A DNA stretch of 64,000 nt from a virus. Lineage: Duplodnaviria; Caudoviricetes. Position 1 is the first letter of the stretch; every line of letters begins with the position of its first letter. The position numbers and the translations under genes are program-made. The stretch spans positions 1-64,000 of the IMG/VR virus record IMGVR_UViG_2593339199_000002; one strand, given 5' to 3'. The notes beneath the pieces are model-generated. The model did not search any database. It was not told the DNA's origin and saw only the letters and a program-made list of their open reading frames with translations. Shown piece after piece: positions 25,980 to 60,136 of this stretch.

Positions 25980-25983
25980 GATA

Positions 25984-32616: not shown

Positions 32617-35600
32617 ATGACAACTCAATCCGCAACCAACAACACATTCACTTCCGCAGCTGACGTACTCGGCGCACTGGCTACATTCCCGGGCATCCGT
32701 GAAGGCGGCAAGAACTTCGATGCAGTGATCAACGCAATGGTAGAGGGCAACAGCCTGCTGAACGTGCTTCATGATCCAACCGGCATTGCAGGGATCGCGC
32801 CACAGCAAGCTCACCACTTTGCCCGCTTCGTTGCAGCACATGAGCTGCCAGATCACCTAAAGCCGAAGAAGCGTGATGCCATTCAGACCCTGATCGCGGA
32901 TATCAACTTCATGACGCGGGATGCCGATGGATGGCTGGTATCGACGCTTAAGTACAATGATCCAACTCGCGACAATGGCTTTGATTTCAAATCCGAGAAT
33001 CAAATGGCAGATACCTTCGCCTCCGAGCCGGTCGTGCTGCAGATCCGCAAGAAGCTGAGCAAGGGTGAAATGGTTGTTGAGAAGCGGGCCCGCCTCATGC
33101 ATGACATCGTAACGGTGAAGATGAACTGGATCCTGGAAGAAGGCCAATCCGAGTTCACGGCAGAGCAGCTGTCGGTTCACAAGGAGCTGAATGAGAAAGG
33201 CTTCAAACTGATCATCAACGGCCAAGAGAAATACGCGAAGATGATTCAGCAAACGAACAGCCAAGCACGCCAAGTGATGGAGAACTTCCTGGTGTGCGAT
33301 AACGAGTTCGATGCGGTTCCTGACTTCTTCATGAAGCTCGGCCACAACCTGATTGCCTATGCCAAGAAGAACGCTGATGGCACCATGACGATCGATTGCA
33401 CCAAGTACATGAGCCGTATTGGTCTGTCCGGCACCAGCTCCGTGAATACCCGCTCCATCTCGATCGGCAGCGATATCCAAGAGAATGACGAGCTCTACAG
33501 CGTGGTGGGCGGCAACTTCACGATGCGTATTCAACCCGACGTCCATGTGAAGATCCGCACGGGCCAATACAAAGTCATGAATGCGCAGACACACGAGTTT
33601 GAGGTATTCGATGCAGCGAACCATCCGGTTGATATGGTTGCCGGCGACGGCCTGATCTTCGTAAACGAGCGCGTCTATAAGGCACTCGTAGCGGAGCATG
33701 GCGTAGACGTTGACGCATGGCAAGTTCGTATCACGCCGTTTGGTAAGGGACTGGCTGTCTATGTCCCTGGGCTTGAGAAAACATTCGCAGAGGATATCGT
33801 CGCATTCAATTCCGCGATCAAAGGCGACTTCCGTGATGTTGTAGGCGCACACAAGATCCAATTCCGTATCGCGTTGTTCAACAAGCCGGCGAAGAAAGTG
33901 AAGAAGTTTACGGAGTATCCTTACCAATTCGTGCATGGCACGTCCCTGACGGCAGAGGACATGATGGAGCTGGTTCGCCCGCATGTCGATAAAGTCGTTG
34001 AGATGCTGCAGGATGCAGATAAGCTGAAAGAATACCTCGGCATGGATCACCTTGATGGCGCATCTGATGAGCAGCTGGACAAGGCTCTCGTGACGACACT
34101 AATGACATTCCTGCATGAGGCACCATTCACGTATAAGGACGTGCAAATGAAGAAGTTCGCCGTGCAGCATGTCATGGACATGATCAAGAATTGGGTGGTC
34201 GGCTCCATCCCGATCCGCGGCAACTACAAGTTCATGGTGCATGATCCTATCGCAATCGTCGATGCGATTGCCTTGGACCGCAAGCTCCCAGGCAAGCTGC
34301 GTGATGAAGACGGCAATATTTCGATTCCTTCTAACCTGGGTCTGTCCGCCGGCACTGTGGTCGTCCGTGACCTGAAGGACGCTTATATAGAAGGTGAAGT
34401 CGGCATGCAGCGGAATCCACTCATCGCTAAGAGTGAATCCGCATTCGCTATGGCCGTGAAAGACGTTAAATATGCGCGTGCCGGCCACTACCGTAACCTG
34501 TGCATCATGAGCGTGCATGACTTTAATACGGCCAAGCAAGGTGGCGCCGATAATGATGGTGACAAGACGCTGGTGGTTTATGATCAAACGATCATCAAGG
34601 CAATCAAGCGCAATGCTCACCTCCCTGCCCTGCTCGATGTGCATGTCGTGGAATACAACGACGGCGAGCCTGTGTTCGACAGCGGCTGCCCGAAAACATG
34701 GAGCAAGGCACCGGAGAACGTCTACGAGATTCCCGCTTCCATGATCGTGAAACAATCGGGCTTCAAGGTAACCTTCAACAAGGATCAGTACAATGATGCG
34801 CTCATCAATGAGCTTCACAAACTGACCAAGAACTACATCACTCGCACGCTGAAGCCAAACCAAATCGGCATGCTGACGAACTATGCAACCAAGCTTGCTG
34901 ATGCTGTCCGCGCCATGGGCTATCAGTATGCACTCGGCGTGAATGCAGAAGGCAACGCCCTGACGGCAGAGGACAAGAAAGAGCTGCTCGGCAAGGTCAA
35001 GCAATTCGAGCAATGGATCGACCTGCTCCGCCTGTGCCAAGGCTGGGAGATCGATGCCGCTAAACACGGCGGCGCATTCTGGGATGAATTGGCCAACGAA
35101 CTGTCCTTCATCCAAGATCCTCCGAAGGAAGTCGGCTACGTGAACAAGAAGGGTGTTGCCGTATGGTACACGCCTGACTGGATGGGTGCACGCAACGAGA
35201 AAGAGCATGCAGTGGCAACCGGCTCCGTATTGTCCCGCGTGTTCACGGATATGGTGAAAGAGCGTGCTGGCATCCAGGCATCGGTTTCTGAACTGGACAA
35301 GCGGAATGAAGGGACCAACATTTTCTACGAGTTGAACGCAGCGATTGCCATGACGCCAGAGCGCATGGATGCTTTGAAGCCATCGATCGTCGAGATCGAC
35401 CGTGAATATCGTCTGGGCATCAAGCAGCTGATGGAGAAAGAAGCAGCTGCCAAGGAGCGGGCGATTGCCGCGGCGGACGGTAACAAGCAAAAGCTCGAAT
35501 ACTATCTGGAATTGGTGAAGCAGCAGTCCAAAGAAGAACGCGAGATGCTGATCGAATCCTGCGCTGGTCAACTTGAGCGCCTGGAAGATGTATTCCTGCC

Positions 35601-36042
35601 TGAAGAGATCGGCTTCGTTGCTTACAAGGTGGCGTATATCGATAACAAGTCCGAGTCCACGACTTTCCCATGGACTGCAGCGAAGCGTCAGCTGCTGGCG
35701 GCATGCCAAGTAGCTGCAGGCACGATTCCTACTCGCTTGCCACAGATTGCTACACGCAAAGCGGATGTAGAAATTAAGATGCAGCTGGTTAACCCACGTT
35801 CGGCTGATCTGATTGCGAAAGCGGTCCGTAACGGCTACATGGACGTGAAACTGGTTGAAGATCAGCTGACAGGCATGATGCAATACGCTGTAGGCGTAGA
35901 GAATGTGCTGCTCGGCTATGTGTACCACAATTCGGCTATCTGGTTCAACGGCATGAACCTGGGACGCGTACACTTCACCACTGGCCGCAACCTGTCCGAT
36001 AAATCGGTAGCCATTGCAGCAACTCACATTCAACTTGCTTAA
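32617..36042 (+). CDS. YonO-like single-subunit two-barrel RNA polymerase (cellular RdRP-like family)
   Basis: GDG, QVR...KG, RNP and catalytic GADNDGDK (DxDGD) motifs in a 1141-aa protein. Confidence 0.85.
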   Translation: MTTQSATNNTFTSAADVLGALATFPGIREGGKNFDAVINAMVEGNSLLNVLHDPTGIAGIAPQQAHHFARFVAAHELPDHLKPKKRDAIQTLIADINFMTRDADGWLVSTLKYNDPTRDNGFDFKSENQMADTFASEPVVLQIRKKLSKGEMVVEKRARLMHDIVTVKMNWILEEGQSEFTAEQLSVHKELNEKGFKLIINGQEKYAKMIQQTNSQARQVMENFLVCDNEFDAVPDFFMKLGHNLIAYAKKNADGTMTIDCTKYMSRIGLSGTSSVNTRSISIGSDIQENDELYSVVGGNFTMRIQPDVHVKIRTGQYKVMNAQTHEFEVFDAANHPVDMVAGDGLIFVNERVYKALVAEHGVDVDAWQVRITPFGKGLAVYVPGLEKTFAEDIVAFNSAIKGDFRDVVGAHKIQFRIALFNKPAKKVKKFTEYPYQFVHGTSLTAEDMMELVRPHVDKVVEMLQDADKLKEYLGMDHLDGASDEQLDKALVTTLMTFLHEAPFTYKDVQMKKFAVQHVMDMIKNWVVGSIPIRGNYKFMVHDPIAIVDAIALDRKLPGKLRDEDGNISIPSNLGLSAGTVVVRDLKDAYIEGEVGMQRNPLIAKSESAFAMAVKDVKYARAGHYRNLCIMSVHDFNTAKQGGADNDGDKTLVVYDQTIIKAIKRNAHLPALLDVHVVEYNDGEPVFDSGCPKTWSKAPENVYEIPASMIVKQSGFKVTFNKDQYNDALINELHKLTKNYITRTLKPNQIGMLTNYATKLADAVRAMGYQYALGVNAEGNALTAEDKKELLGKVKQFEQWIDLLRLCQGWEIDAAKHGGAFWDELANELSFIQDPPKEVGYVNKKGVAVWYTPDWMGARNEKEHAVATGSVLSRVFTDMVKERAGIQASVSELDKRNEGTNIFYELNAAIAMTPERMDALKPSIVEIDREYRLGIKQLMEKEAAAKERAIAAADGNKQKLEYYLELVKQQSKEEREMLIESCAGQLERLEDVFLPEEIGFVAYKVAYIDNKSESTTFPWTAAKRQLLAACQVAAGTIPTRLPQIATRKADVEIKMQLVNPRSADLIAKAVRNGYMDVKLVEDQLTGMMQYAVGVENVLLGYVYHNSAIWFNGMNLGRVHFTTGRNLSDKSVAIAATHIQLA

Positions 36043-36602
36043 TCATTGATGCATGGGGAGGGCACTGTCTCTCCCCCACCCTTCGGGTATGCATACAGCT
36101 GATAAGTCATCGCTGCACCTGCGTCACGCATGAGCCTCGCCAAGAGCATACAACCTCACCTCTGCCCCATCGGCATCCCACATGCCCATGCCTGTCCCAT
36201 GACCATACCCATGCGAACACGATGCGGCCACCTCCACCCTGTCAACTTGGGGTAACTCAGCAATCTTTGCCCAGCGACATGACACCATGCCCAGAGGGGG
36301 CCACAGCAGGTTCGTTCCCGCTTCATGTGTCCAGCTCACCGAGCATCCTGGGGTTGAAAATTGGAAATTCGCATCCCGCTTCTGCATCCGGATGATCGTG
36401 CTTCTTTATGGCCATGATGCTGATATGATCATGCCTTCGGATAGGTGCGATGAGACACGCTAGAGGGGCGCCTGACGGCGCTGTTCATCTCGATGTATCA
36501 TTCGTGCATCAAGAAGCTATTGACGCTATACGTGGCACAGGAGAGCGGCTGACGCCGCATTTCATCTTGAGGCTAAACTACGTGCAAGGAGAGATGTTTA
36601 TC

Positions 36603-36983
36603 ATGCAAGCGACTGTTAATGCGACTATTACCGAGATCAATAAGCTCACCTGGAAGGTTGAAGGCGTGCATACGGTTTATGTGCGTGCAATCCGTGATGC
36701 TGTGGATCCATGGTTCAACTACTATATCCTTGATTCCTTGGAATCTGAACGTGTCCTGCATTCTGTTGATGACCATGATTCCTTCCCTGATGATCAGGCG
36801 ATGAATGAGGCACTTGCATGGGCAGTGCTCTATGCAGAAGGTGGTATCGAGGACGATAGCATCAATGAAAGTGCTACGTGCGAGGAAGGCGACATGGACG
36901 ATTACGATGCTCGTGAGGAAGGTCCCTTCGGTGGTGCCTTTGCTGACTGGGATGATTACTATCGTTACATTGGTGCTATCTAG
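36603..36983 (+). CDS. Acidic hypothetical protein
   Basis: AAGGAG RBS; very D/E-rich C-terminus. Confidence 0.6.
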   Translation: MQATVNATITEINKLTWKVEGVHTVYVRAIRDAVDPWFNYYILDSLESERVLHSVDDHDSFPDDQAMNEALAWAVLYAEGGIEDDSINESATCEEGDMDDYDAREEGPFGGAFADWDDYYRYIGAI

Positions 36984-38585
36984 TATCTATGCTCTAGTAT
37001 CTATGCTCTCTATATGCTTCATGCGTATAGGGAGCTTCTTTCCTTTCCCGCTCCCCCGCTTGCCCCTGCTGTGATGGGCGTCTGACGCCGCTCTTCATCA
37101 TGATCGATCAAAATCGTCCATCCTTCCCCCTTCCTATTTCCTCTGAATGGAGGCTTGTTATGAAACCGAATCAACCTGATGCGCTGGCTTTGTTCAGCAG
37201 CATCGTGCGTTTAATGCAGATGAGCGAAACGAATGAGGTGCCTATCGCTACATGCCATGCTATGCATTTGGAGTTTACGAATGACCGTATGTGCTATGAC
37301 GAAGCAGTTGCTCTTATGGATATGCTTGTTGCTCGTAACTATCTATCTGTGCGTGTTGGGCAATGGGGAGTCAAGATGTTGTCTCCTACTTCTTATGGAC
37401 ATGAGCGATTAGCTTTGTATTCCTCTCCCGCTTCCCCGCCGCCCCTTCGGTCTTGATATGCCTGACGGCATGATGCATTCCGATGAATAATCCCTACGTG
37501 GAGGTATGCTTGATGAAACTTGAAAATATGCAGTCCCATGCGGATGCCCTTAATAATACGATTGCAAGCACATGCGACTATTGCGGTGCATGTGATACGT
37601 GTGCTGAATACATCTATCTTACGCAAGACATCGCTTTTGAGAAGCAGGTGCAGCGTGCTCCTTCTCATGTTCGCCTCGATCTCCGTCGGTCATATCATGA
37701 ATCAGATTGGGTTCTTCTATAAGTGCCTGACGGCATGATTCATTGTGATGTAATGTGCTACAATGTGCACATGGGCATATCTGATTATTAAGTTTCATCC
37801 GTATTGCTTATTGCCTGATTATCATCCAGTACATAATGTGAGGTGATTGGCATGGAGATTAATATGTATTCTGTTTCCGCCGATATGGATGCATCTGATT
37901 TGCATACCGCTGCAATGCCGTATGGTCAAGCGAAGTTTATGTACGATCGCTGGAAGGCTGATCCGGAAGTGTTCAACGTTATTATGTATCGGCATGAAGG
38001 CGACAAGAAGATCATGCTTGGACCAAGTGAGGTTTAATTGTGGAGCTCGTTTCTGAATACTGTCATGTGCGTCAATCGTTTATGCTGCATGATATCGAGG
38101 TGCGTGTTGGTGACTATGTAGGTTTTACCTATACTTCTCCTACTTCCTCTACTCGGATATTAGGCTATGTTCATGGCTTTGATCTTTCCGCCGGCCTGAT
38201 GTTTGTGATCATCTCTGGGAAGCATGCTGTGTATGGGTATTCCTTGGACCAGGTGAAGGATCTTTACTTTCCAGAGGAGGACGAATAGTTGGGTAGGCAT
38301 CAAATGCGTAAGAAACTCCGTCATGGCGGAGAGTTATCCATTTTCTCATGGATCGGCCTGCTGGTTTTTGCATGCATCGCTTTATCGTTTCATGCAACGC
38401 GCCTCGTTTTTATCAGCTTATTCGGAAGCATATTGATTTGCACGCTACTAGAGAAGCTGTATAAACGTGCGTTTCGCAAGGATCCCCCTCAAGCTCTCTT
38501 CTATACGTTATTGGTTTTATGCGCGGTTGGACTTGCGATTGCGTATATGGTGATTACGGATATGGATTCCTTGTTTTTGTAGCTG

Positions 38586-38626
38586 AGTCACACTGCTCTT
38601 ATCTAGGGCAGTGTGACTTTTTTTAT
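38586..38626 (+). terminator. Intrinsic terminator
   Basis: AGTCACACTGC...GCAGTGTGACT followed by a T-tract. Confidence 0.8.
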
Positions 38627-38945
38627 TCCCGCGCCCTCCCCCATTAATCGTGAAAGGTTGTGACCACATGAACATGAAACACCTGAAGGATCATGGCGTC
38701 TATATCGGCTTCTACCGGGAGCATGGTTTCGTCTATGGTATCCCCAATGGCCAATTCGACCCTGTTACAAGAGAGAAACGTTTCAGCTTCTATGGGCTGC
38801 ATAATGGCAAGATCAATCATATCCGCAAGGATCAGCTTCATACGTTATTTACCGAAGAGGTTCTTACGGCCGGTTAGGACTATACGTTGCATTGATAGAG
38901 TGGTAAAATGTCCCTATGTCTTTTTGCCTATACTTTAATTGGGAG

Positions 38946-39308
38946 ATGTTTAGTTTGAAATTCAAGATGATCGCGGCTGCTGCATTGGCGGCTGTATTGC
39001 TTGCGGGTTGTACGTCCAGAGAGGATAAAGCGGAGCAGTTCGCTATTGATGGCCTTATTGACTTCAATCACGGCGACGTGGAATCCTTCACCGTAGAAAG
39101 CTCCGGTATCGATCGGGATGATTACCTGATGACACGCTATCGATTCTATGGCACCGTCGTCTATAAGGGTAAGACGATACATAATGCATTTGCGATCGCC
39201 CAGTACAATAAAACCACCGACGATCCCCGCTGGGCCTTTGGTGGATGTAACTGTGTCCAGCTCGAAGAAGCTTACGAGTCCGGAAACAGCACTGCAAGTA
39301 ACCGTTAA
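38946..39308 (+). CDS. Lipoprotein
   Basis: Signal peptide with LAGC lipobox. Confidence 0.7.
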   Translation: MFSLKFKMIAAAALAAVLLAGCTSREDKAEQFAIDGLIDFNHGDVESFTVESSGIDRDDYLMTRYRFYGTVVYKGKTIHNAFAIAQYNKTTDDPRWAFGGCNCVQLEEAYESGNSTASNR

Positions 39309-40925
39309 GGCTGGGTGTATAATCATGACGGAACAGCAACGCATTTCCCTCGATGTTTTCCGCGCCCTGGCTTTTCTTTGCCGTTCGCTATATCCCCTTT
39401 ACGATGGTGTGAACCGGTATGCATGGCGACAGCAGCATCTGCTTGATGGTACAGTAAGCATTAGCCATGATGACTTCGGTAAGATTGTTTATTCCCTCGT
39501 TACACATGGCTATGTGGAATACCATGCAGGCAAAGGCTTGTATCGTCCTGCTACTACAGCCATTCAGCGTATGGAGGAGATCGATTCTGGAGCTCATTGA
39601 GTCATACTTGGCCTTTATCCCCGGCGAGCTATACTACTTCGTTTGTGACAATATTGCCTATCGTGCTGTATACGTGAACTCGTTTGATGAGAATGATGGT
39701 GTGCCTTGCGGATTGCATCATCGCTTCTCCCCGTGCCTCCAGTTCGACGTGGGCCAGGACTATATGATCGGCAAGCAGTCGGTCATGTTCTTTCTCACGT
39801 TTCAGCTGCAGCAATGCTACATGGTTTCGCGGCCAAATGAATGGGAGCCCTATATCAAGCGACTATACGGAAGGTATGGCTAGGAGGAATCTGCTTGGAA
39901 CTTGCGTCTGTCTATATAAGCATCAGCAGCTATGTCATTGGTGCGAATTATCATTTCCTCTTTTACGGCGCCCCTACTGCGGGCCGGCTGGAACGTGTCG
40001 ATGGTCCATGCTTATATTTCAGCAATGTCTCCATGCATCATGAGGCTGAGGAATATGAGCTGATCCCTTCGGATTGCTTCCATCTTGATACGATTACGGA
40101 GCTGGAGATGATCGGCGATCTTCCTATCGATTACGGCCTGATCCGCGGAGATTTCTATCGTTTTGTGCATGCCGGCTACATCTACGAAGGCGTGTATACG
40201 CGCGAGCAGAATCGCAATGGCATGGTTATGTACGAGTTTCGGAAGCTGCTCTGCACGGATAAGGATGAGCGGACATCCAGCATGCAGACGTGTACCTTCT
40301 TCCCTCATGAGCTATTAAGTCTTACGCATCTTGGGGCGGCCCGTCCGAAGCCATATATCTGAATACGAAAGGTTTGAATGATATGGAAGGCATTGGTCTC
40401 TTCCTAGCGATCGTAGCATGGATCGCCTTTATTTGTATTGTCGCTTCGGCCCGCCAGGGTCGTAACTTCGAAGTTATGAAGCCATGGATTCTGATGATCG
40501 GCAGCGCGACGTATTTCTTCTGCGGCCCGTTTCTGCTCGTGGTTAATGGCTGGTGGATCATAATGATCATCGGCGGAGGCATCTGGGGCTTGATCTATTT
40601 CATCAAATCTTCATCGAGAGGAAGTCGTTAATATGTGCGCATGTGGAACTCCGTTTCCTGTTGATTGCGATTGCCGTCCGGACTATGGGTATATCCCTGC
40701 TCATCTGGATGCACGCGCAGATTTTGATTGGCATGCTCCTGAGCCTACGGATCACTTCTCCGAAGATGATGTAACGCCTGCCATCTTCCACGCCGCCTCA
40801 TTGTTGGAGCAGCCGGCTGAAGATCCTTCGTTCTGCACATGCGGACTCGGCATTCAGCACCAGGACTGCTTCTGTCTCCCCTTCTAGTAATAGATCGTGT
40901 ATCATGATGCTATGGGGGTTGAGAG

Positions 40926-41402
40926 ATGGCAGATTGGTATTTGGAAGATATTCATGGAGTACGACATAAAGCAGTCATCGCAGCTATGCAGCCTAATCAA
41001 GCCGCTAAAGCAAGATGGACGAAGGGCCTCAGCTGGCACAGGGAGCTCAAGGCAACGGACCGAGAAACATTCGTCCTTATTGACGATGCTACTGGCACCG
41101 CTCAAGGTGCCATTTCCCTGTCCGATGCTGGGGATCACGTCTACATACATTTGCTTGAGAATGCGCCACATAATCGCTCTGTTGCAAATCCAAGGCAATT
41201 TGTGAATGTATCACGGATCCTTATTGGTTTTGCCGGAGCAATCAGTAACTCCTTCGGATACGAGGGCTTCTTGGCTTTGACACCAAAGTCGTCGTTGGAG
41301 GATTATTATGCCCGCCTGTTCAAGGCTTTCCCGCTTCCCGATCGTAAGATGGGCATACATGGTGTTGTCTCAAATCACTGGTACAGGGTATACTATACGT
41401 AG
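40926..41402 (+). CDS. GNAT-family acetyltransferase-like protein
   Basis: VYIHLLENAPHN...V...LI.FA...S...GY.GFL.L.PK..L..YY pattern. Confidence 0.65.
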   Translation: MADWYLEDIHGVRHKAVIAAMQPNQAAKARWTKGLSWHRELKATDRETFVLIDDATGTAQGAISLSDAGDHVYIHLLENAPHNRSVANPRQFVNVSRILIGFAGAISNSFGYEGFLALTPKSSLEDYYARLFKAFPLPDRKMGIHGVVSNHWYRVYYT

Positions 41403-41416
41403 AAGGGCGTGATCTT

Positions 41417-41662
41417 ATGGCGCGTAAAATATTGCACGGTGTCCAAAATGCGAAAGGACAACCTATTCGAGTAACGGTTGGAACTGCTCGTGTAAAAGAG
41501 ACAATCGTTGATCTTGAAAGGCTTGAGATGATTGACCCTCGTGGTATCCATACGGATCCAAGTGGTCGCGATGGCCATACGCCTGAATCTCGGGCAGCTA
41601 TGACCGAGTTCATCCGTAAATGTAAATCCGGCGAAATTGAAATGAAACCAATCGAACTATAG
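41417..41662 (+). CDS. Small protein cotranscribed with the GNAT gene
   Basis: ORF followed by a terminator at 41673-41703. Confidence 0.6.
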   Translation: MARKILHGVQNAKGQPIRVTVGTARVKETIVDLERLEMIDPRGIHTDPSGRDGHTPESRAAMTEFIRKCKSGEIEMKPIEL

Positions 41663-41758: not shown

Positions 41759-42034
41759 TTGATGATGATTACGAAACATAAAATGCCCATCGCCGTTATT
41801 GGCCTGCTTATCCTATTCTCCGCGGTCATCTGGCGCAACGTGCAGTCTGATTTCAACAATGTCACCTGGAAGCAATACATAGTCGGATCCGGCGACACCA
41901 TGTGGAGCATTGCGCAAACGTCAACGGTGGATACAAATACGCGCGACATTGTTGCGGTCATGCAGGACTATAACGAGATGCATAACGTTAATCTTCATCC
42001 CGGTGATGTAATCTTGGTCCCGATGTCCAAATAA
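41759..42034 (+). CDS. TM + LysM protein (YneA-like division inhibitor)
   Basis: N-terminal TM; YIVGSGDTMWSIA...LHPGDVILVP. Confidence 0.75.
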   Translation: MMMITKHKMPIAVIGLLILFSAVIWRNVQSDFNNVTWKQYIVGSGDTMWSIAQTSTVDTNTRDIVAVMQDYNEMHNVNLHPGDVILVPMSK

Positions 42035-42072
42035 CCTGACGGCTCGATTATTTACGATATTAATTTCGGAGG

Positions 42073-42519
42073 TTGATATTCATGCATATTAAATTGACAT
42101 GTTGTTTCGAATGCGGCCCGACCAGGCTGATCCCGCCCCATCTTACTAATAACGAGATCAATTGGATTCGGTGTGCCGGCTGCCGCGAGAAAAATCGGGC
42201 GTTCTATCGCGACTTCTGGAGCGAATATGTTGATGCCATGAATAATGGAGATCGTTTAGTTGATGACGGTCGTATTGTTGCTCGCATCAATGGTGAGCAT
42301 TACGTGATCGGATTCGAAGATGAAAAAGGCTATTTCCGCGGTCACGGCGGTAACACTTTCGTCCTTCGGTTTACGAGCGGTCCGCACGCCGGACAGACCT
42401 ATCGCACGACGAATCTCTGGGCTCAAGGCAAGATCAGCCATGGGTTCGAGAAGATCCTCACAGATAATGCTGTCTTCGTGCCGCAGGTCTTTGCCTCACT
42501 TCTTGAGGCGCTGGCCTGA
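42073..42519 (+). CDS. Hypothetical phage protein
   Basis: ORF with GGAGG RBS; CxxC pairs. Confidence 0.6.
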   Translation: MIFMHIKLTCCFECGPTRLIPPHLTNNEINWIRCAGCREKNRAFYRDFWSEYVDAMNNGDRLVDDGRIVARINGEHYVIGFEDEKGYFRGHGGNTFVLRFTSGPHAGQTYRTTNLWAQGKISHGFEKILTDNAVFVPQVFASLLEALA

Positions 42520-42544
42520 CGGCCTATTTCATTTTAACATGCGG

Positions 42545-42621: not shown

Positions 42622-42629
42622 TGGTCAAT

Positions 42630-42857: not shown

Positions 42858-42862
42858 TACAT

Positions 42863-43391: not shown

Positions 43392-43818
43392 CGCTTCTCC
43401 CTTGCCCCCTCCAATGACCATACTATGAGTCCCCCCGAAGGGGGCAATGCCGTCCGCTAAATGGACAGACTCCGTGCAACCTATGTAAGTATGTATCATG
43501 GAAATGATCGACCAATCAGTGTTACTTGATTGACTGTCATGCGGCTTTATTCCATAGTGGAACATGCATCTTGTCATGGATCATGTTTCTTTGGGCTCCT
43601 GCCCTTTTTCCAATTCTGGAATCTTGTTGCATGATTCCTTGATTCTTGGTGGTCTGACATGATGCTTGATTAAAAGTGCCACTATATATATTACATAGTG
43701 GCAAACTTGGGGTATTTGAACCCCAGTTTTCTTCCAATTGATGATTTCACATAATTGTCACATGTTGTTCGTATTTGTTCTGGCTGACGCCAAGGTTCAT
43801 TTTGGAGGTGGTTATCCC

Positions 43819-47543: not shown

Positions 47544-48152
47544 ATGCGGAAGCAGATTTTCGGTGTTTTTTGGGCGGCGGCCATGATGGCGCCTGGTATC
47601 ACCATGAATTTCGTACCAAAACTAGCGGCGGCCGGCATCTTCGCCGCGGCCATCGCGCTTAACGCCTACATTTTAGGGAACATGACGTGGCAAAAGCATG
47701 CCATGACCGATAAATTGACGGGTCTGCGTAACAGGGCAGCACTCGATCAACAGCTGAAGGTATATCGGAAGCGCCAGGTGTCGGTGCTCATGATCGACAT
47801 CGATAATTTCAAGTCCATCAACGATTCCTTCGGACACGCGATAGGGGATGGGGTCCTTTATGATGTGGCCAATACGATGATGAGCCAAATTCGAGGTGCT
47901 GACATCTACCGCTATGGGGGAGAGGAGTTCACGATCATCTTGCCTGGATTGCAGATACGAGAGAGCTATGCGATCGCAGAGCGCCTTCGGAAAGCCGTAG
48001 AGCAACACGTTCACGTTTATGGAAGGCCCGTGACGATTTCAATCGGCGTAGCCAGCTGCTCAGATATCAAGCTGGCGATGAAGCAGGCGGATGAATGCCT
48101 GTACGAATCCAAGCAACGAGGGAGGAATGCCACAACTGCTTGTGCATGTTGA
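47544..48152 (+). CDS. Membrane-anchored diguanylate cyclase
   Basis: TDKLTGLRNR, DIDNFKSINDSFGH..GD, RYGGEEF and K..GRN. Confidence 0.92.
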   Translation: MRKQIFGVFWAAAMMAPGITMNFVPKLAAAGIFAAAIALNAYILGNMTWQKHAMTDKLTGLRNRAALDQQLKVYRKRQVSVLMIDIDNFKSINDSFGHAIGDGVLYDVANTMMSQIRGADIYRYGGEEFTIILPGLQIRESYAIAERLRKAVEQHVHVYGRPVTISIGVASCSDIKLAMKQADECLYESKQRGRNATTACAC

Positions 48153-48236
48153 GCCTGACGGCTCGTTTCATATTAGAATCTGACCGCCATCGTGCGGTCT
48201 TTTTTTATTCCATTGAAGGGAGGAAGCCGCGTGGCC

Positions 48237-48740: not shown

Positions 48741-49479
48741 ATCGCATAGGCCCGATCATGGATCGGATTATCGATAGCACGCTGCTGCTGGTCCTTAGCC
48801 TTGTTATCTTGACCGTAGCTTCTTTCGCACTCAGCATATACGCACTCATTCTGTTCATCGCGCTGATCGTGCTTTTTGCATGCTATGTGCGATGGTCTGT
48901 ACAAACCGAACCAGTTGAGGAGGATCACCAACATGACGATGGTCACAACAACATGCAGCCTTTGTCGCACCGACGTCACGCTTGATTTTGAAAACCTGTC
49001 GCATGACGAGGCCGTCGAAAGACTTCGCAAGCTCGATAAAAAGGCGATGGAATGCCCAGGCATGCATGTCGAGATGGGCGGCTGGTACAAGCGCTGGAAG
49101 TTGGATGAGGCGCTTCGCGCAGCCTATCCGGATCATTACACCAATGGAGCCTGACGGCTCGTTTCATGCTGATCTACATATTAGAGAGGAGATCTCCATC
49201 ATGCATATAGCTTCTGTCGTTGCAAACCACCTCATCAATGCCGGCTCTAAAGCCGAGATTCAAAGCACACTTCAATCTTGCCGTTCGCATACCGAGCAGC
49301 ACGATGCATTGAAAATGGCTGCGGATCATATTCTGCTGGCCGTTGAATCGAATATCGCACAAAAGAATCATCAAGTCGCAATCTGGGAGCTCTCGAAGCT
49401 GGCGATCGTGGAAGACGAACTGCTGAAGGCGGAGCGTCGCATGAATCACGTATTATCGCTCACAGGAGCACGCCTCTAA
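48737..49479 (+). other. Three small CDSs (48737-48985 membrane, 48933-49154 Cys-containing, 49201-49479)
   Basis: ORFs with plausible RBSs. Confidence 0.5.
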
Positions 49480-49648
49480 TGCTTTGGCTTGGTGCATTCA
49501 TGATCATCGTTCTATCAGGGCAGGTGTGGTGCCTGCCCCTATTGTTCATTTTCTTTTTTATTGTAATGGCTAACAAGAAGATCAATTAGGCGCCTGACGG
49601 CGCGATTCATCTTAGCTAATATCCAATTTCCCGAGGAGGAAACTAACC

Positions 49649-50918: not shown

Positions 50919-52814
50919 ATGATACAGGTACGTATGCAGTACAACAATGTTTACTTGAAGATACTTGATGGACCGGAGACATTTGACCATACGCTTGAAA
51001 AAGTGCGTTACATCCGGAACCGTGGGTTTAACATGGAAACAGGTGAATGGATGTTTGATCGTGAATATATCGGGGATTTACTTGCTTTATTCGATAATCA
51101 AATTACCTGGATGACACCGCTTCATGAAATTGTCGCAGGCGTCAATTTGAATCATGAGATCGTCAACCAACACATTCAATGGGAATCCGAAGGCGAGTTC
51201 AAGAACTTCTTGTTGCCGCTGTATGCGTATCAAAAAGTCGGGGCCAATTTCCTCATTGACCGTGGATGTGCAGCTGTGTTCGATGGCTGCGGGTTGGGCA
51301 AAACTCCTCAGCTGATTGGAGCATGTGAAAAGCTTCATGAGCAGGGAAGGGCCCAAAAGATGCTTATTGTCACACTCAGTTCCCTCAAACGACAGTGGGC
51401 AAAGGAAATCGAGAAATTCTCCGGGAAGACGGCGATCGCCGTTTCAGGTACGCCGGCTAAGCGCGCATCTCTTATCAAAGGATTCGCTCAGCGCAAGGAC
51501 ATTCAATACATGGTGATCAATTATGAGATCCTTCGGAATGATACCCTCCGAGAATTGATTAAGAATATACCGTTCGATGTGGTAGCGCTCGATGAAGCAC
51601 AGAAGATAAAGAATGGCGTGCGCGACACCTCTTTGAATATGGAGCCGAGCCAGATTGCTGCGGCGGCCTATGAGCTTAAACACATCAAATATCGTTTTGT
51701 CGCGACGGCGACCCCGCTTCAAGGCAAGGCTGAAGAGATCTTTAGCATCTTTTACTTTCTGAATGAAGAAATTCTTGGGCCATGGAATTATTTCCGTGAG
51801 CGCTACTGTAAATACAGCACGCGATATGGCATCACGGGGTACATTAATTTGGGCGAGCTGTATTACCGAATCGCACCATTCTTCATCAGGCGGACAAAGG
51901 ATATGCCAGAGATTCAACAGCAGCTTCCGCAAGTCCAGCATTCCCATGTCTTCCTTGAAATGACGGATGCACAAGAAAAGCTGCATGATTATCTGATCGA
52001 AAAGCTTACGGACATTAAAGAGCAGGCCAGGAGTATCACGGATTACAAGTTCATCAATGGGCAATCCATGTCCCCTCAAGAGGCAAAGGAATACTACGAT
52101 GCCTTGGCGCAAGGCTATCAGAGCTTTCTACTCAGCACCTGCGACAGTCCGGAGCTGCTGCTGATGTCCAAGACCCCGATGGCCGAGAAGATACTGAAAG
52201 AAGTCCAGCTCAGCGAGAAGGATCTGAAATCACCGAAGATCGATCAGTTCAAGGAGTTCTTCAGCAGCATGCTATATGATGAGCCAAACTCCAAGGTCGT
52301 TATCTTTTCCCGCTTCGAACGGATGGTGGAGCTGTTGTACCGTGAGCTCAACAAGGATTCCCGCGGCCGACCACTCGATAATCCGATCGCAGTCGCTTAT
52401 CATGGACAATTGACCGAAGGCGCCAAGGAATACGCTAAGGAACAATTCCTTCACAATCCAAATATTAAGGCCATTATCTGTACCGATGCAGGATCAACGG
52501 GACTAAACCTTCAGGTGGCGAACTACATGGTCCACATCGATCTGCCTTGGGATCCGACACTGTTGGAACAGCGCAATGGCCGCATTGACCGGACAGGTAA
52601 CGCCTTCGCCAATGTGACCATCTACTATTACGCCATGGAGAACAGCTTCGACGAGCATCTGCTGGAGATTCTGGACCGCAAGTCCGATCTCGCGAACCAG
52701 GTTCTCACCGGTGGTGCTGACAACCGCAGCCGTGAGAGGGATGTCAACAAGCTGGCGATGGATCGCCTCCTTCGGAAACGAAACAAGCAAACGAATAATG
52801 AGAATGTGGGGTAG
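50919..52814 (+). CDS. SNF2-family helicase/translocase
   Basis: GLGKT, DEAQ, TATP, GLNLQ and QRNGRIDR. Confidence 0.92.
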   Translation: MIQVRMQYNNVYLKILDGPETFDHTLEKVRYIRNRGFNMETGEWMFDREYIGDLLALFDNQITWMTPLHEIVAGVNLNHEIVNQHIQWESEGEFKNFLLPLYAYQKVGANFLIDRGCAAVFDGCGLGKTPQLIGACEKLHEQGRAQKMLIVTLSSLKRQWAKEIEKFSGKTAIAVSGTPAKRASLIKGFAQRKDIQYMVINYEILRNDTLRELIKNIPFDVVALDEAQKIKNGVRDTSLNMEPSQIAAAAYELKHIKYRFVATATPLQGKAEEIFSIFYFLNEEILGPWNYFRERYCKYSTRYGITGYINLGELYYRIAPFFIRRTKDMPEIQQQLPQVQHSHVFLEMTDAQEKLHDYLIEKLTDIKEQARSITDYKFINGQSMSPQEAKEYYDALAQGYQSFLLSTCDSPELLLMSKTPMAEKILKEVQLSEKDLKSPKIDQFKEFFSSMLYDEPNSKVVIFSRFERMVELLYRELNKDSRGRPLDNPIAVAYHGQLTEGAKEYAKEQFLHNPNIKAIICTDAGSTGLNLQVANYMVHIDLPWDPTLLEQRNGRIDRTGNAFANVTIYYYAMENSFDEHLLEILDRKSDLANQVLTGGADNRSRERDVNKLAMDRLLRKRNKQTNNENVG

Positions 52815-52860
52815 GCCTGACGGCCTGCCTCTTTTTACTTTATGGGAAAGGGCGGGAGAA

Positions 52861-53223
52861 ATGAGCGAAGAAACGGTTATTAAGGAGCTTAACTTTGATC
52901 TAATCGCTGCCGGCATCCGAAACATGAGCGTTATCCCTGATTCGGAGTATGAGCATATGCATAAGGCAATGCCGGTCTTCAATGTCCTCTTGAATGAAAC
53001 TGAAACTGATGTTGAGTTTTTGAAAGGCACTACAATTGAGCAGTTTGAAATCACGTTCGATTACATAAATAATGCCATTACCTATGAGGATGGATTGGAA
53101 GAACACGAGCTGCAGTTCGCACAAGAGATGCGAAATGCGCTGTTCCAATACTGCGCCGTGCGCGATTGGATTCGAGATGCATCTGCGCTGCAGACATTTC
53201 CCCGTAAGGTTACATTCATTTAG
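52861..53223 (+). CDS. Hypothetical protein
   Basis: ORF with RBS, downstream of a hairpin motif. Confidence 0.55.
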   Translation: MSEETVIKELNFDLIAAGIRNMSVIPDSEYEHMHKAMPVFNVLLNETETDVEFLKGTTIEQFEITFDYINNAITYEDGLEEHELQFAQEMRNALFQYCAVRDWIRDASALQTFPRKVTFI

Positions 53224-53238
53224 CGAGGTGAATCATTC

Positions 53239-53937
53239 ATGGTTGAGCCGTTGTACGGCTATTACGAGAAGGAATACTGGCTGGCGCAGCTGGACCGCTT
53301 GGTTACATTTAAGATCATGGTGGACCGCGGCCACGAGCCGGAGGATCTGGAGTTCTTCAAGGGGCATGAAGCGTTTGCCTACAATGCTCCCGAGTTTTTC
53401 ATGCAGACGTTTAAGCTGCTGACCAGCGATTTGCTGATCGATTATCCTGAAATCACGGAGGAGGATCAGAAGATAGGCATCGGCTATCGGATTAAGTTTC
53501 ACTTCCGGCCAGACCTGACGCCAGAGGAACTGGAGCGAAAGGGGGCGCTGAAAAAGCACCTGCATGTCGCCTTTGATCATGTCGATGTCGAAGGCGTCAA
53601 TACAAAGTGGGACCTGGATAAAGATGAAGACGAGCTAACGATCGAGGTGCAGCTCTGGACCGGTTTTGGATTTATTTTGCATCACGTCATGCGGGCCATG
53701 GATAACATGAAACCATTCTTGATAATGAAGGAGGTTCTGATCGATGTCGGACAAAGTAGTAATCACGCTGGAGAGGAACAAGATGCCGCATGTGGCATTC
53801 GAGCAAAAGGGTGGGGCGAAGACCGGGGGCCATTGCTACCACGATCAAGTGATCAGCTTGATCATGTCTGCGCAGAACGAGCAGCTTGTAGTGGAACAGA
53901 AAGAGACGGTGCTCAGCTCGCCGGCGCTGCCGAGTAA
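53239..53937 (+). CDS. Hypothetical protein
   Basis: GAGGTG RBS; 3' end overlaps the next gene. Confidence 0.5.
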   Translation: MVEPLYGYYEKEYWLAQLDRLVTFKIMVDRGHEPEDLEFFKGHEAFAYNAPEFFMQTFKLLTSDLLIDYPEITEEDQKIGIGYRIKFHFRPDLTPEELERKGALKKHLHVAFDHVDVEGVNTKWDLDKDEDELTIEVQLWTGFGFILHHVMRAMDNMKPFLIMKEVLIDVGQSSNHAGEEQDAACGIRAKGWGEDRGPLLPRSSDQLDHVCAERAACSGTERDGAQLAGAAE

Positions 53938-54418
53938 TACGGTTAAATACGCCCAGCATTCAGATGGCACACATGTGCTGTTTGTGCTGGAAGATGAGGC
54001 GTATTCGGACATTTCCTATTACACGTCCACGTTTCAAAATGTGGCCTTCCCAAAGATGGTATTCGGTTATATCGTGAAAGGCACATCGTTGGCCAAAGCC
54101 TACGTGGCCTGTTACAAGGACAAATATTTGCGGGACACGACGCCATTATTCAAGTTCCCGTACTCCAACGTGCATGCGAACGGCGCGCTTTGTTATTTCT
54201 CCACGGAGGTCATCAAAGACCTCGTGCAGTTGCAGACGTTTGCTTATCGTTGGCGCCAGGTGCCGAACAACGATCACCTAACGGGCCAGCGGACGGAGCT
54301 CGATGCGTCGCTGCGCGAGTTGTTCGAAATGCACCAAGACGCGGATTTCAATTACGACATTTTGGCACCGATGAACACGACGTTCGGCGAGTGGGGCCAA
54401 ACAATCACCAGGCCATAG
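53744..54418 (+). CDS. Prokaryotic E2 family D-like protein
   Basis: FP.MVF...T.LFKFPYSNV...G.LC and NNDH motifs; adjacent to ThiF. Confidence 0.7.
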   Translation: MSDKVVITLERNKMPHVAFEQKGGAKTGGHCYHDQVISLIMSAQNEQLVVEQKETVLSSPALPSNTVKYAQHSDGTHVLFVLEDEAYSDISYYTSTFQNVAFPKMVFGYIVKGTSLAKAYVACYKDKYLRDTTPLFKFPYSNVHANGALCYFSTEVIKDLVQLQTFAYRWRQVPNNDHLTGQRTELDASLRELFEMHQDADFNYDILAPMNTTFGEWGQTITRP

Positions 54419-54427
54419 GAGGGCTGC

Positions 54428-54913
54428 TTGATGTCCATGCAATTTGAAAGTGAACAAGATCTGATGCAAGAGCAGGGGCAGGTCGTACATAAAATCGTTA
54501 TTCCCGCTCCGGCCGATGACAATAAGGAAGACGCCGATCTCGAAAGGGAGGTATGGCAGGCTGAAGCGCAGGAGTCTGCCACTGAAGAGGAGGATCTCAC
54601 GGCCGAGAACTTCTTCGATTTCAGCGGCGGCACTTCCCGGGCACCGAAGAACAAAACAAAGCCAGCAGTAAAGGCAAACACGAGTAAGGCGGTCAAGCCA
54701 AAAGATCCGGAGAAGAAATACGGATCGGATTTCGTGATCTGCTATGCCCGTGAGCGCATCGAGATGCCGGCCGGCGAAGATCTAACGCTCGAGCAAGTTC
54801 GGCAATGGTTGGAGACGGATTTCCCCGAGTTCGGCAAGGAACGAACAGAGATGCTCGTGGATGAGGATCAAAAGTTCATCGTGCCGATCCTCAAGTCGCC
54901 GAAGAAAGGATGA
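54428..54913 (+). CDS. Ubiquitin-like (Prok_Ub) domain protein with acidic N-extension
   Basis: LTLEQVR..L...FPE; C-terminal KKG. Confidence 0.6.
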   Translation: MMSMQFESEQDLMQEQGQVVHKIVIPAPADDNKEDADLEREVWQAEAQESATEEEDLTAENFFDFSGGTSRAPKNKTKPAVKANTSKAVKPKDPEKKYGSDFVICYARERIEMPAGEDLTLEQVRQWLETDFPEFGKERTEMLVDEDQKFIVPILKSPKKG

Positions 54914-54917
54914 TCTC

Positions 54918-55706
54918 ATGAACGTACCAACGCTCAACCTGCCCTCCAACTTCTTTACGATCGTGCAGATCGGCGTCGGCGGCAACGGCGGCTATTTGAC
55001 ACAGCGGCTAACCAAAATGATGTATGCCTTCGGCCGGACGACCGAGCAAGCATTCAGCTACTGCTTAGTAGATGGCGACCGCTTCGAAGCCAAGAATCTG
55101 CTGCGGCAGCCATGTATCGCCGAGGATCTCTTGGAACTCAAATCCAAGGTGCTCGCCGAGCGATATGGCACCGTCTATGACCTGAAGATCAGCTATCGGG
55201 ACCGTTATGTGGAATCCGTACAGGATCTGCATGACCTCATGATCGGCGTCGAAGCCCGGGGGACCGTAATCCTGCTTGGCTGCGTAGATAACCATGCAAC
55301 GCGCAAACTCATGCATCGGTTTTTCCATGAAACAAAGCACGACATCATCTATCTCGATAGCGGGATCGAAGCTGTGCTGCCCGACGAGCCAAACAGCGGC
55401 TATGCTGGCCACGTCGTCTGCGGCGTAAAGCTGCAGGGGAAGGTCCTGCTGGAGCCTGTCGGCGATCTTTACCCGGATATCCTAGAGGATGATGAATCCA
55501 AGCTGCCTACGGAATCCTGCGGCGACACGATCGTCAATCATCCCCAGCGCATGATGACCAATGAAATGGCCGCACTCGTTATGGCTGGCTATTTGAATAC
55601 AATCCTTGGCGAGGAACAAATTGTTGCGCATTACACAAACTTTAATGCAAAAACCATGCTTTCTAAGCCCGCCTATATTCACAAAGAGGCGCTTCAGGGT
55701 GTATAA
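54918..55706 (+). CDS. ThiF/E1-family adenylyltransferase
   Basis: IGVGGNGG, DGDRFE.KNL.RQ, GCVDN..TR, DSG and SC motifs. Confidence 0.88.
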   Translation: MNVPTLNLPSNFFTIVQIGVGGNGGYLTQRLTKMMYAFGRTTEQAFSYCLVDGDRFEAKNLLRQPCIAEDLLELKSKVLAERYGTVYDLKISYRDRYVESVQDLHDLMIGVEARGTVILLGCVDNHATRKLMHRFFHETKHDIIYLDSGIEAVLPDEPNSGYAGHVVCGVKLQGKVLLEPVGDLYPDILEDDESKLPTESCGDTIVNHPQRMMTNEMAALVMAGYLNTILGEEQIVAHYTNFNAKTMLSKPAYIHKEALQGV

Positions 55707-58348: not shown

Positions 58349-58592
58349 GCGGCTTTTTTCTTTATCCAAAATGTCGAGCATTACATACGCCTGACGGCGT
58401 GTTTCTTGTAGATTCACTCATAAAATTGAGGTGATGCCAGTTAATACGAGCATTTAACCACAAGATATTGGGGTTAGTATCGGATATGACACTAGATCAT
58501 TCTAGTCTGTCTTATTCGTATTGTAATGCCTTGCAAAACGTGGGGTGAGTGTGTTAGTATAGGCCTACGACGACAACCGAATATAAAGCGGG

Positions 58593-59538: not shown

Positions 59539-59543
59539 TCGCC

Positions 59544-59879
59544 ATGCCTACCGTCACCCAGCTGCGTCCGCATGTGACGCATTTCTCTGAAGAAATCAAG
59601 CTGAAGGCACAGGTGAGTCAAGAGGTCACCGTTGCCGGACGAATTGATAGTGTCAGCCAAATCGACGACAGTACGATCGTCATCATGTTGGACGATTACA
59701 TCGGACAGCTGCGCGTTGTCATGTCCAGCATTATGTACAGCCATTTCAAGTCGATCATCGACGTAGGAAACTTCGTTTCCGTTGTTGGATACGTGAACGT
59801 GGTGTCCCATAAAGTCGCTGGCGAATTGAAAAGCGAGTATTCGATCATCGGCTTTGACATGAATATTTTATCCTTTTAG
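59544..59879 (+). CDS. OB-fold nucleic-acid-binding protein
   Basis: VTVAGRI..V...LDD..G.L.V...G..V.V.G.V. Confidence 0.7.
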   Translation: MPTVTQLRPHVTHFSEEIKLKAQVSQEVTVAGRIDSVSQIDDSTIVIMLDDYIGQLRVVMSSIMYSHFKSIIDVGNFVSVVGYVNVVSHKVAGELKSEYSIIGFDMNILSF

Positions 59880-60136
59880 GGGGTGGTGAGCATTCGTAAC
59901 GTGCTTGTTTTCCCAAGCGGTGAGGAGCAGGACTTCATGTACCCGACCGACCGCGAGATTGTCGATGGAACAGAGCTCGAGTTGGTAATGATGGATGAGT
60001 CCATACATAGGCTCAATGTTACGTCCGTCGTGCGTGAAGAAAAGCGCATCTTGTACCATCTGTCGTACTAACCAGTCGCTGACGCTCCTATTCATTTTAC
60101 ATGATTCAAAACCCAAAACCAGAAAGGTGATGCACA

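Follow-up and report, generated by a model that had tools for sequence, protein, structure and literature searches.

What does a YonO-like RNA polymerase of a phage recognise as its promoter? The question is raised by the virus record IMGVR_UViG_2593339199_000002 (99,904 bp; G000 in this text), the first 64 kb of which are referred to as the window. The window carries a gene for a single-chain two-barrel RNA polymerase (RNAP) related to YonO of phage SPbeta and, downstream of this gene, repeated copies of a small hairpin element built on the hexamer CTGACG. The YonO discovery paper leaves the promoter of that enzyme undefined; in the excerpts available, its sequence was left to be determined by the authors, and PYONO is a single start site serving one late operon (PMC5467207). 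An earlier annotation of the same DNA by a model (the original prediction) had proposed that the repeated element is a DNA-hairpin promoter. Here, a promoter role for a two-barrel polymerase of the phage is proposed, with the YonO-like enzyme of 32617-36042 as the likeliest reader of the elements, and we give this reading about even chances.

G000 is classed as a provirus by IMG/VR, with a CheckV completeness of approximately 51%, and a protein search showed that its polymerase also occurs on a contig of up to 213.5 kb. The record consists of two divergent arms. The minus-strand arm (1-31544), or structural arm, contains the terminase, portal, protease, major head and tail protein genes. The plus-strand arm (31616-99904) has a few small genes and the polymerase gene first, then small genes of unknown function, and then genes of replication and recombination, which include those for SNF2 helicase, RecA, AAA ATPase, ThyX, UvrD helicase, primase, a second SNF2-like protein and the beta clamp.

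Hairpin element of G000

CTGACG occurred 55 times on the two strands of the window, with 33.3 expected. All 14 sites listed in the original prediction were present, on the + strand, and the claimed spacing between CTGACG and TTCAT fitted 12 of them with no more than one mismatch; the other two, 42036 (TTATT) and 52817 (CTCTT), have two mismatches in the TTCAT box. With one mismatch allowed, the pattern CTGACG-N6-TTCAT gave 12 matches in the window (1.61 expected), a number reached by none of 100 shuffles. In the whole record, 16 matches were found in the forward direction and none in reverse, and the reversed control pattern gave none.

A covariance model was built from 18 aligned copies and run unfiltered on both strands of the whole record. 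It returned 19 copies, the 18 and a new one at 89626, which is 43 nucleotides (nt) 5' of the beta-clamp gene. All 19 were located on the + strand and scored from 25.4 to 40.3 bits, the next match having 11.3 bits; no copies were found on the minus strand or in the structural arm. When the same model was run on a 3.6-Mb Alicyclobacillus genome as a control, 3 weak matches were obtained, the best with 22.1 bits.

With positions counted from the closing C of the stem (C0 of CTGACG), the element was found to have a 5-bp stem and a 4-nt loop (coding strand, TGAC), followed after a spacer of 2 nt by TTCAT, which occupies +12 to +16, and by a purine at +20. CTGACG, including the closing C:G pair, and the +20 purine were invariant in the 18 aligned copies, and the TTCAT columns showed the strongest conservation, approximately 1.3–2 bits each. 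The four outer stem pairs covaried in this alignment. Pairing was present in 90.0% of 90 stem cells versus 64.7% in shuffles, and 22 cells were changed on both sides of the stem versus 7.4 in shuffles; in both cases, 0 of 500 shuffles reached the observed value. Sliding of the register as a control left 26–59% paired. The covarying hairpin claimed from the letters was therefore borne out, together with two finer claims, that the stems at 37082, 42036 and 60079 are weak (1, 2 and 2 mismatches, respectively) and that the A of TTCAT is 11 nt past the last loop base. A 15-base exact pattern was detected in at least 116 viral contigs, with a single copy in each of the 80 contigs listed, indicating that multi-copy use is not general.

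The YonO-like polymerase gene

The gene product matched the eukaryote-type RNA-dependent RNA polymerase family PF05183 of Pfam (E 1.2e-7, exceeding the curated cut-off), a family to which the control genomes gave no match. BLASTP against SPbeta YonO (E 1e-6) showed 24% identity over 237 aa across DNDGDK, with ADNDGDK aligned to FDNDGDK, and both proteins matched phrog_8308 (E 2.3e-14 on the side of the G000 polymerase), as members of the same polymerase family. An AlphaFold model from 9 sequences was of low confidence, the mean predicted local distance difference test (pLDDT) value being 61.7 and that of the core below 50. In Foldseek, the top matches of this low-confidence model were QDE-1 and RDR2 (E 3e-11 to 5e-7, with template modelling scores of just 0.21–0.34), and a crAss-like phage virion polymerase ranked far lower (E 0.18). 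Based on PF05183, the YonO alignment, phrog_8308 and, with little weight, the Foldseek ranking, we agree with the original prediction in calling this a YonO-type two-barrel polymerase, and a distant YonO-like enzyme with predicted RNA synthesis is accepted as the product.

Polymerase-like genes found in G000 and in four related phage records (see below) were of the two-barrel type only. The T7-type family PF00940 had no match in these five records, which is a weak test since the control likewise gave no match. No match was obtained by tblastn in a cultured phage collection with the G000 or G002 polymerase, or in a single-protein scan of viral contigs with the G000 polymerase. On its 3' side, the polymerase gene is followed by a long C/A-rich non-coding stretch (36043-36470).

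Placement of the elements and predicted start site

As the original prediction stated, the elements of G000 stand before genes and exclusively downstream of the polymerase gene, according to the covariance model and the gene calls. The element core was outside the crude gene calls in 17 of the 19 copies, in an arm with a non-coding share of 13%, and the other two cores overlapped merely small open reading frame (ORF) calls on the opposite strand. The 19 sites lead to 18 distinct downstream genes, one being shared by a tandem pair. A start codon was present 35–58 nt downstream in 13 copies (overall range, 35 to 674 nt), and in 8 copies it was 35–46 nt from C0. Nine copies begin no more than 9 nt past the previous stop codon. 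Copies tied to a downstream start alone numbered 7, and those tied to an upstream stop alone 3.

In the tightest copies, such as site 43784 with its start codon at +35, the first base of the Shine-Dalgarno sequence is at about +20. Transcription would therefore have to start no later than about this position, and from the sequence the start should fall between about +13 and +20. By analogy to the geometry of phage N4, in which transcription starts five bases past the stem, C14/A15 of TTCAT would be the candidate start, with the +20 purine as the alternative candidate. A TGA common to all lineages, located 11–16 nt past the closing G, may mark the initiation region.

Elements in phages with related polymerases

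Homologues of the polymerase are rare. A protein search found 8 others, and the closest relatives include P0002 (75% identity) and P0003. Full-length relatives at 31–40% identity were found in four viral records (G001, 195 kb; G002, 216 kb with terminal repeats; G003, 93 kb; and G004, 229 kb), one Alicyclobacillus shizuokensis contig (L025) and seven metagenome loci (L263–L269). Records G000 to G004 are all two-armed, with the polymerase gene near the head of one arm.

Comparison with these relatives, which was beyond the reach of the original prediction, supports a functional link between the motif and the polymerase. The relatives show no enrichment of the exact G000 pattern, but those bearing the polymerase have versions of their own (Table 1), which often stand at orthologous positions. 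The coding-strand loops across the relatives are TGAC, TGTC/TATC, TCC, ATCC and TAAC. In G000–G004, all copies had the same strand as the polymerase gene and followed it, the first at 0.2–1.2 kb past its end, and none was found between the arm start and the polymerase gene. The copies in L263, L267, L025 and L266 were likewise downstream of the polymerase gene and on the same strand. Stem covariation was also evident in G004 (83.5% of cells paired versus 58.2% in shuffles) and G002 (90.7% versus 70.1%), with 0 of 500 shuffles reaching either value, and nine G004 copies were picked up by the covariance model of G000.

A uniform detector, C-TNNC-G with four perfect flanking pairs, was applied to the polymerase flanks of seven relatives. 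Downstream, 13 matches were on the same strand and none on the opposite strand; upstream, none were on the same strand and 5 on the opposite strand. As judged by eye, 11 of the 13 downstream matches had the tail box of the lineage, which was absent from the 5 opposite-strand matches and from 2 in L012.

Ten genes downstream of the G000 elements had a homologue in G004, and 7 of these were preceded by the G004 motif at 36–63 nt; 8 had a homologue in G002, and 5 of these were preceded by the G002 motif at 44–61 nt. Genes for AAA ATPase, primase, beta clamp and UvrD helicase were among the orthologues with the element position kept. Since the motifs are kept before orthologous genes, elements with different loops and tails are considered functional counterparts. 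Direct observation covers the motif with its stem covariation and placement, as well as its conservation beside the polymerase in a form specific to each lineage. In more distant YonO-like loci (L015–L025), simple loop counts revealed no clear family, and a scan of G005 for CTRTCG...TTTGGTGA gave one exact copy, the rest being chance-like.

Proposed promoter function

The promoter reading is drawn from a strand-specific signal in many copies, its restriction to one contiguous module, the position of the first copy behind the polymerase gene, a common architecture with letters that vary by lineage, and conservation at orthologous genes. From this pattern we infer that the elements act as promoters and which enzyme reads them, and from the strand asymmetries described below that the hairpin forms in DNA. 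Among sequencing runs looked up for 36400-46399 of the window, one DNA run was listed, possibly the origin of this DNA, and no RNA run. In the proposed scheme, the polymerase gene, which has no element upstream, would be expressed first from other promoters. The YonO-like enzyme would then initiate at the 19 elements, which head small unknown genes and DNA replication and recombination genes of the same arm, so that its target would be a middle-gene module of approximately 55 kb. The signal would consist of a 5-bp hairpin with a fixed TGAC loop and closing C:G, in which the four outer pairs need just pair, followed by the spacer, TTCAT and the +20 purine.

Hairpin in DNA or in RNA

On the template strand, the loops of the different lineages read c-GTCA-g, c-GACA-g, c-GATA-g and c-GTTA-g (cGNNAg), c-GGAT-g (cGNABg) and c-GGA-g (a GNA triloop with a C:G closing pair). 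Such loops would belong to stable classes of DNA mini-loop, with which, judging by its title, a 2002 study of Nakano et al. reportedly deals. GNA loops with a C:G closing pair are stable DNA mini-loops according to excerpts of a further paper (PMC3201870).

In the 59 sites of the five phages, 39 of 236 stem cells were not Watson-Crick pairs. Twenty of the 39 were T.C or C.T on the coding strand, equal to G.A or A.G on the template, and 2 were the reverse. A stem variant, GTCG-loop-CTCY, was recurrent, with two sites in G000 (60079 and 76100) and five in G004. It alternates with fully paired stems at orthologous positions, the two pyrimidine-pyrimidine mismatches being kept, and may represent a distinct promoter subclass. 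The same variant as at element 60079 was found before the G004 orthologue, and the G002 and G003 orthologues were also preceded by a motif. This variant has tandem G.A/A.G on the template strand and would have tandem U.C/C.U in an mRNA. Tandem G.A/A.G mismatches are tolerated in DNA. In a nearest-neighbour DNA fold, the template strand was favoured by just about 0.4 kcal per site, which limits the strand argument. Taken from the loop and mismatch asymmetries, a hairpin of template-strand DNA is favoured and, by analogy to the early promoters of N4, the hairpin is probably read in DNA on that strand.

Several observations weigh against the reading as hairpin promoters of the YonO-like enzyme. 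Elements 37727, 42516 and 48155 directly follow a stop codon, with the next called start distant. A terminator-like hairpin was present within 75 nt upstream in just 3 of the 59 copies from five phages, from which it follows that most copies are also transcribed from upstream; for the same reason, an upstream terminator was dropped as an argument for a promoter. Few copies were recognised in G001 (3) and G003 (5), and the motif of G003 preceded 1 of 8 orthologues (plus one 1.2 kb away) and that of G001 none of 8. Regarding the hairpin in DNA, 14 of the 20 template G.A cells come from the one variant (GTCG...CTCY) and are not independent, and G.T and A.C mismatches, found 7 times each, do not discriminate between the two strands or between DNA and RNA. 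The energy cost of extruding a 5-bp cruciform is high (PMC4496689, cited throughout from excerpts). A 22-kb stretch of SPbeta including yonO-yonK had no hairpin of this class, a scan of it for c-TNNC-g, c-TNC-g and c-NTCC-g with at least 3 further pairs giving one unrelated match. In the paper on phage P23-45, which has its own two-barrel polymerases, the word hairpin is absent from the main text (PMC10770324, also cited from excerpts); the promoter logos, placed in its figures and supplements, may bear on whether the GC-rich motif of gp64 includes a hairpin. Furthermore, the complete relatives G002 and G004 encode giant proteins with RYPxxH...(N)ADxDGD, which are considered below.

The alternative that fares best is an element acting in mRNA, as a leader hairpin that a phage protein would bind or an endoribonuclease would cut, for processing, stabilisation or translational control of middle messages. 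With a terminator in front of 3 of 59 copies and many copies 2–9 nt past a stop codon, the elements would be within longer messages; covariation cannot tell DNA from RNA, and confinement to one gene class suits a class-specific RNA regulator. However, we know of no stable RNA loop class that contains the coding-strand loops UGAC, UGUC, UAUC, AUCC and UCC, whereas the template complements all read, by sequence, as stable DNA classes. Moreover, an RNA stem of the recurrent variant would carry the tandem U.C/C.U, G.U is no commoner than A.C (7 versus 7), the 35–674 nt to the start codon are too variable for a translational operator, and no such Rfam match at gathering score was obtained over the window. 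Action in mRNA is considered unlikely.

Other candidate readers and other functions

A further possibility is that hairpin promoters are read not by the YonO-like enzyme but by a second, giant two-barrel polymerase of the structural arm, possibly virion-borne like polymerases of N4, crAss-like phages and P23-45. Giant structural-arm proteins were found in G002 (69496-75105, + strand, 1869 aa) and G004 (48186-55109, - strand, 2307 aa), which are homologous (29% identity over 1990 alignment columns) and share the aligned RYPxxH...(N)ADxDGD motif. In support of such a reader, the hairpins of N4 are read by a virion polymerase (PMC4496689), and the virion and non-virion two-barrel polymerases of P23-45 use different promoters (PMC10770324). 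On the other hand, the polymerase nature of the giant proteins rests on one motif, with no match in Pfam and PDB sequence searches, and no such gene is present in the 99.9-kb G000 record, itself about half a genome. All five phages lack an element before the YonO-like gene, where early transcription by a virion enzyme would be expected to require one, and the elements head replication genes, a class served by the non-virion enzyme in P23-45 (PMC10770324). We regard a giant reader as clearly unlikely.

It appears very improbable that the elements serve at gene ends as sequence-specific signals for termination or pausing of the phage polymerase. Nine of the 19 copies do begin within 9 nt of a stop codon, and in P23-45, seven sites at which the virion polymerase terminates share a conserved 26-nt motif (PMC10770324). 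However, the next ribosome-binding site follows at 20–30 nt, leaving no space for another promoter, the copies tied to a downstream start alone outnumber those tied to an upstream stop alone (7 versus 3), a tandem pair stands before the first gene, and there is no U-tract. An intrinsic terminator was rejected, as the stem is followed by NN-TTCAT and not by a T-run, and the 4 copies called in a lax scan were due to scattered T.

Scarcely tenable is a host-RNAP promoter, with TGAC as the core of the -35 box and a weak -10 at +24 to +29, used by sigma-A or a phage-modified host polymerase. A consensus scan called 36472 (CTGACG-18-TATCAT) and 37462 (CTGACG-18-AATAAT), and +25 was A in 13 of 18 copies. 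Nevertheless, transcription would start near +36, and the 8 of 19 copies with the start codon 35–46 nt from C0 would lose the ribosome-binding site; the most conserved part, TTCAT, would fall in the spacer while the supposed -10 has at most 0.8 bit; the stem covariation would be unexplained; and the loops TCC, ATCC and TATC of the relatives are unlike a -35 box. A sigma-70-type promoter was therefore discarded, just 2 of 19 copies being called and the implied start breaking the geometry.

Lambdoid nut sites occur two per genome, with a boxA partner and a pentaloop. The boxB/put antitermination site offered as the alternative in the original prediction resembles the elements in its 5-bp GC-rich stem and small conserved loop, but it was rejected for its poor fit with 19 copies over 53 kb that have a tetraloop and a fixed downstream box and gave no such Rfam match at gathering score.

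Comparison with known systems

In the early promoters of N4, bases of the loop and stem are conserved, other stem bases may vary as long as they pair, the template loop contains a sheared G:A, and the distance to +1 is constant; the loop with the sheared G:A explains extrusion at physiological superhelicity (PMC4496689). Like P1–P3 of N4, the elements described here have a small hairpin (5–7 bp stem, tiny loop) upstream of the start with conserved loop and adjacent stem bases (PMC4496689). By sequence, the template loop also reads as the G...A type with a C:G closing pair, and a short stretch, predicted to be single-stranded, separates the stem from the predicted start. In contrast, N4 uses a T7-like single-subunit polymerase that has no relationship to the two-barrel enzymes. 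It is injected and serves 3 promoters at one genome end for early genes, whereas 19 copies are spread here over about 55 kb before middle and replication genes. The loop here is 4 nt (3 nt in G002), and extrusion and dependence on single-stranded DNA-binding protein are features of N4, the present elements being known from sequence alone.

P23-45 provides an example of a single-chain two-barrel polymerase with its own motif and with same-strand replication-type genes following the polymerase gene, as in G000. Its non-virion enzyme, gp64, uses a GC-rich promoter motif before early genes, mapped by start-site sequencing and chromatin immunoprecipitation sequencing (ChIP-seq), and gp96, a virion RNAP fused to the tape measure, uses AT-rich promoters (PMC10770324). 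A second, giant polymerase candidate in the structural module is a further likeness, seen in the relatives of G000. Start-site mapping and ChIP-seq thus underlie the definition of the P23-45 motifs, whereas the elements here were defined by sequence. Inspection by eye of the P23-45 intergenic regions after gp64 revealed long terminator-like hairpins and no mini-hairpin family.

YonO of SPbeta drives one late operon (PMC5467207), in contrast to the elements here, which head middle and not structural genes. A review of SPbeta provided no further information on the YonO promoter. A full-text literature search, supplements not covered, found no hairpin promoter reported for the YonO/two-barrel enzyme class. 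T7-type polymerase/promoter pairs have a common architecture, related phages differing at few specificity positions. The elements resemble the T7 family in having about 17–20 copies of a compact signal before non-early genes, with the polymerase gene upstream of the first promoter; T7 promoters differ in being read as duplex, with no hairpin, by an unrelated enzyme family.

Features of the record

The coordinates of the polymerase gene, the elements and their versions in the relatives are listed in Table 1.

Table 1. Polymerase gene, hairpin elements and further repeated sequences in G000 and its relatives
Feature	Source	Position	Strand	Score (bits)	Remarks
YonO-like single-chain two-barrel RNA polymerase gene	G000, window	32617..36042	+		1141 aa; catalytic GGADNDGDK at residues 642-650
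GCGC-CTGACG-GCGC + TTCAT	G000, window	36468..36494	+	38.6	first of tandem pair; model-training copy; 430 nt past polymerase stop; 131 nt to next start
GCGG-CTGACG-CCGC + TTCAT	G000, window	36545..36571	+	35.2	second of tandem pair; 54 nt 5' of start at 36603
GCGT-CTGACG-CCGC + TTCAT	G000, window	37078..37104	+	32.6	one T.C mismatch; start 78 nt on
ATGC-CTGACG-GCAT + TGCAT	G000, window	37458..37484	+	34.9	6 nt past previous stop; start 51 nt on
GTGC-CTGACG-GCAT + TTCAT	G000, window	37723..37749	+	37.3	5 nt past stop; next called start 125 nt on
TAAC-CTGACG-GCTC + TTATT	G000, window	42032..42058	+	25.6	weak, two stem mismatches; start 46 nt on
TGGC-CTGACG-GCCT + TTCAT	G000, window	42512..42538	+	29.9	no good + strand ORF over the next 670 nt or so
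CTGG-CTGACG-CCAA + TTCAT	G000, window	43780..43806	+	31.4	start codon 35 nt from C0; motif at G004 orthologue too
GAGC-CTGACG-GCTC + TTCAT	G000, window	48151..48177	+	36.1	terminator-like hairpin next, 48182-48199; RNase H-like gene downstream
GAGC-CTGACG-GCTC + TTCAT	G000, window	49147..49173	+	37.4	start 50 nt on; G004 orthologue with motif
GCGC-CTGACG-GCGC + TTCAT	G000, window	49590..49616	+	40.3	T-rich terminator-like stretch upstream; G002 orthologue with motif
AGGC-CTGACG-GCCT + CTCTT	G000, window	52813..52839	+	32.0	3 nt past SNF2 helicase stop; start 44 nt on
ACGC-CTGACG-GCGT + TTCTT	G000, window	58387..58413	+	35.1	terminator-like hairpin upstream
GTCG-CTGACG-CTCC + TTCAT	G000, window	60075..60101	+	30.8	variant; C.T/T.C tandem mismatches, G.A/A.G on template strand
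Copies beyond the window	G000, record	67944, 70732, 76100, 79447, 89626	+		
GTCG-loop-CTCY variant	G000, window	60075-60088			
GTCG-loop-CTCY variant	G000, record	76096-76109			
GTCG-loop-CTCY variant	G004	127118, 135466, 139313, 149878, 153846			
stem-CT[G/A]TCG-stem-CA-TTCNT-N3-GA	G004				17 copies
stem-C-TCC-G-stem-R-TTTGGTGAAAA	G002				15 copies; 3-nt loop
GCCC-CATCCG-GGGC + T-rich tail and TGA	G003				5 copies
TGC-CTATCG-GCA	G001				3 copies
CT[G/A]ACG	L263				3 copies
CTAACG	L267				2 copies; stems CTCC/GGAG and GCAG/CTGC
CTATCG	L025				1 copy; directly 3' of terminator
CTATCG	L266				1 copy
TGTAATGCATTACA palindrome	G000, window	16888-16901, 26331-26344, 31340-31353, 58522-58535, 63885-63898			7 further places in the record; dozens in G001–G004

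Some of the elements have neighbours of their own. C-rich stretches of the form CCTYTCCCGCTYCCCCGC are located just 5' of elements 37082 and 37462, at 37040-37075 and 37425-37455, respectively. Just 3' of element 42516, a hammerhead-like core was noticed at 42545-42621, composed of CTGATGA, a GGCTT/AAGCC hairpin and GAAAC; despite the CTGATGA...GAAAC core, Rfam gave no match at E up to 1 over 42400-43300. Element 48155 has a gene with a GGDEF diguanylate cyclase domain just to its 5' side (47544-48152; Pfam E 4.7e-38). Between this element and the RNase H-like gene at 48237, a terminator-like hairpin, GACCGCCATCGTGCGGTC followed by T7 (a run of seven T), is present at 48182-48206; it could give a very short transcript or be a terminator stopping the host polymerase alone.

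A near-invariant 14-bp palindrome, TGTAATGCATTACA, was found in both arms of all five related phages (G000–G004), often 26–45 nt 5' of a start codon. At 31366-31338 on the minus strand, it overlaps a sigma-70-like TTGTCA-17-TACAAT. As a candidate mark of sigma-A promoters, 92 occurrences of the palindrome were compared, of which 42 had a TATAAT-like box upstream and 31 had one downstream. The palindrome may be a second promoter or operator class.

In the minus-strand arm, a tRNA cluster (25654-26059, minus strand) comprises, according to ARAGORN, tRNA-Cys, tRNA-Asn and a third tRNA, the oversized anticodon loop of which is read as the 4-base anticodon cgca. Rfam over the window gave three tRNA-model matches at gathering score and nothing else.

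Implications

As a tentative wider proposal, of which we remain somewhat doubtful, a lineage of approximately 200-kb Bacillota phages may have evolved, independently of N4, promoters that are read by shape, namely template-strand mini-hairpins (GNNA/GNA) for a YonO-type RNAP, with a loop and tail code that diverged together with the enzyme. If this reading is true, the YonO family would gain its first defined promoter type, and cell-type (two-barrel) polymerases their first hairpin promoter. Recognition of an extruded hairpin, shown so far for the unrelated N4 virion polymerase alone, would then have arisen twice, here in a lineage related to cellular RNAP. The system is open to testing, with a 27-nt signal, one candidate enzyme and natural loop variants for specificity swaps, and a polymerase of 40% identity is present, with at least one element directly after a terminator, in a strain available in culture, Alicyclobacillus shizuokensis NBRC 103103. 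Compact orthogonal polymerase/promoter pairs for Gram-positive hosts would be a possible use.

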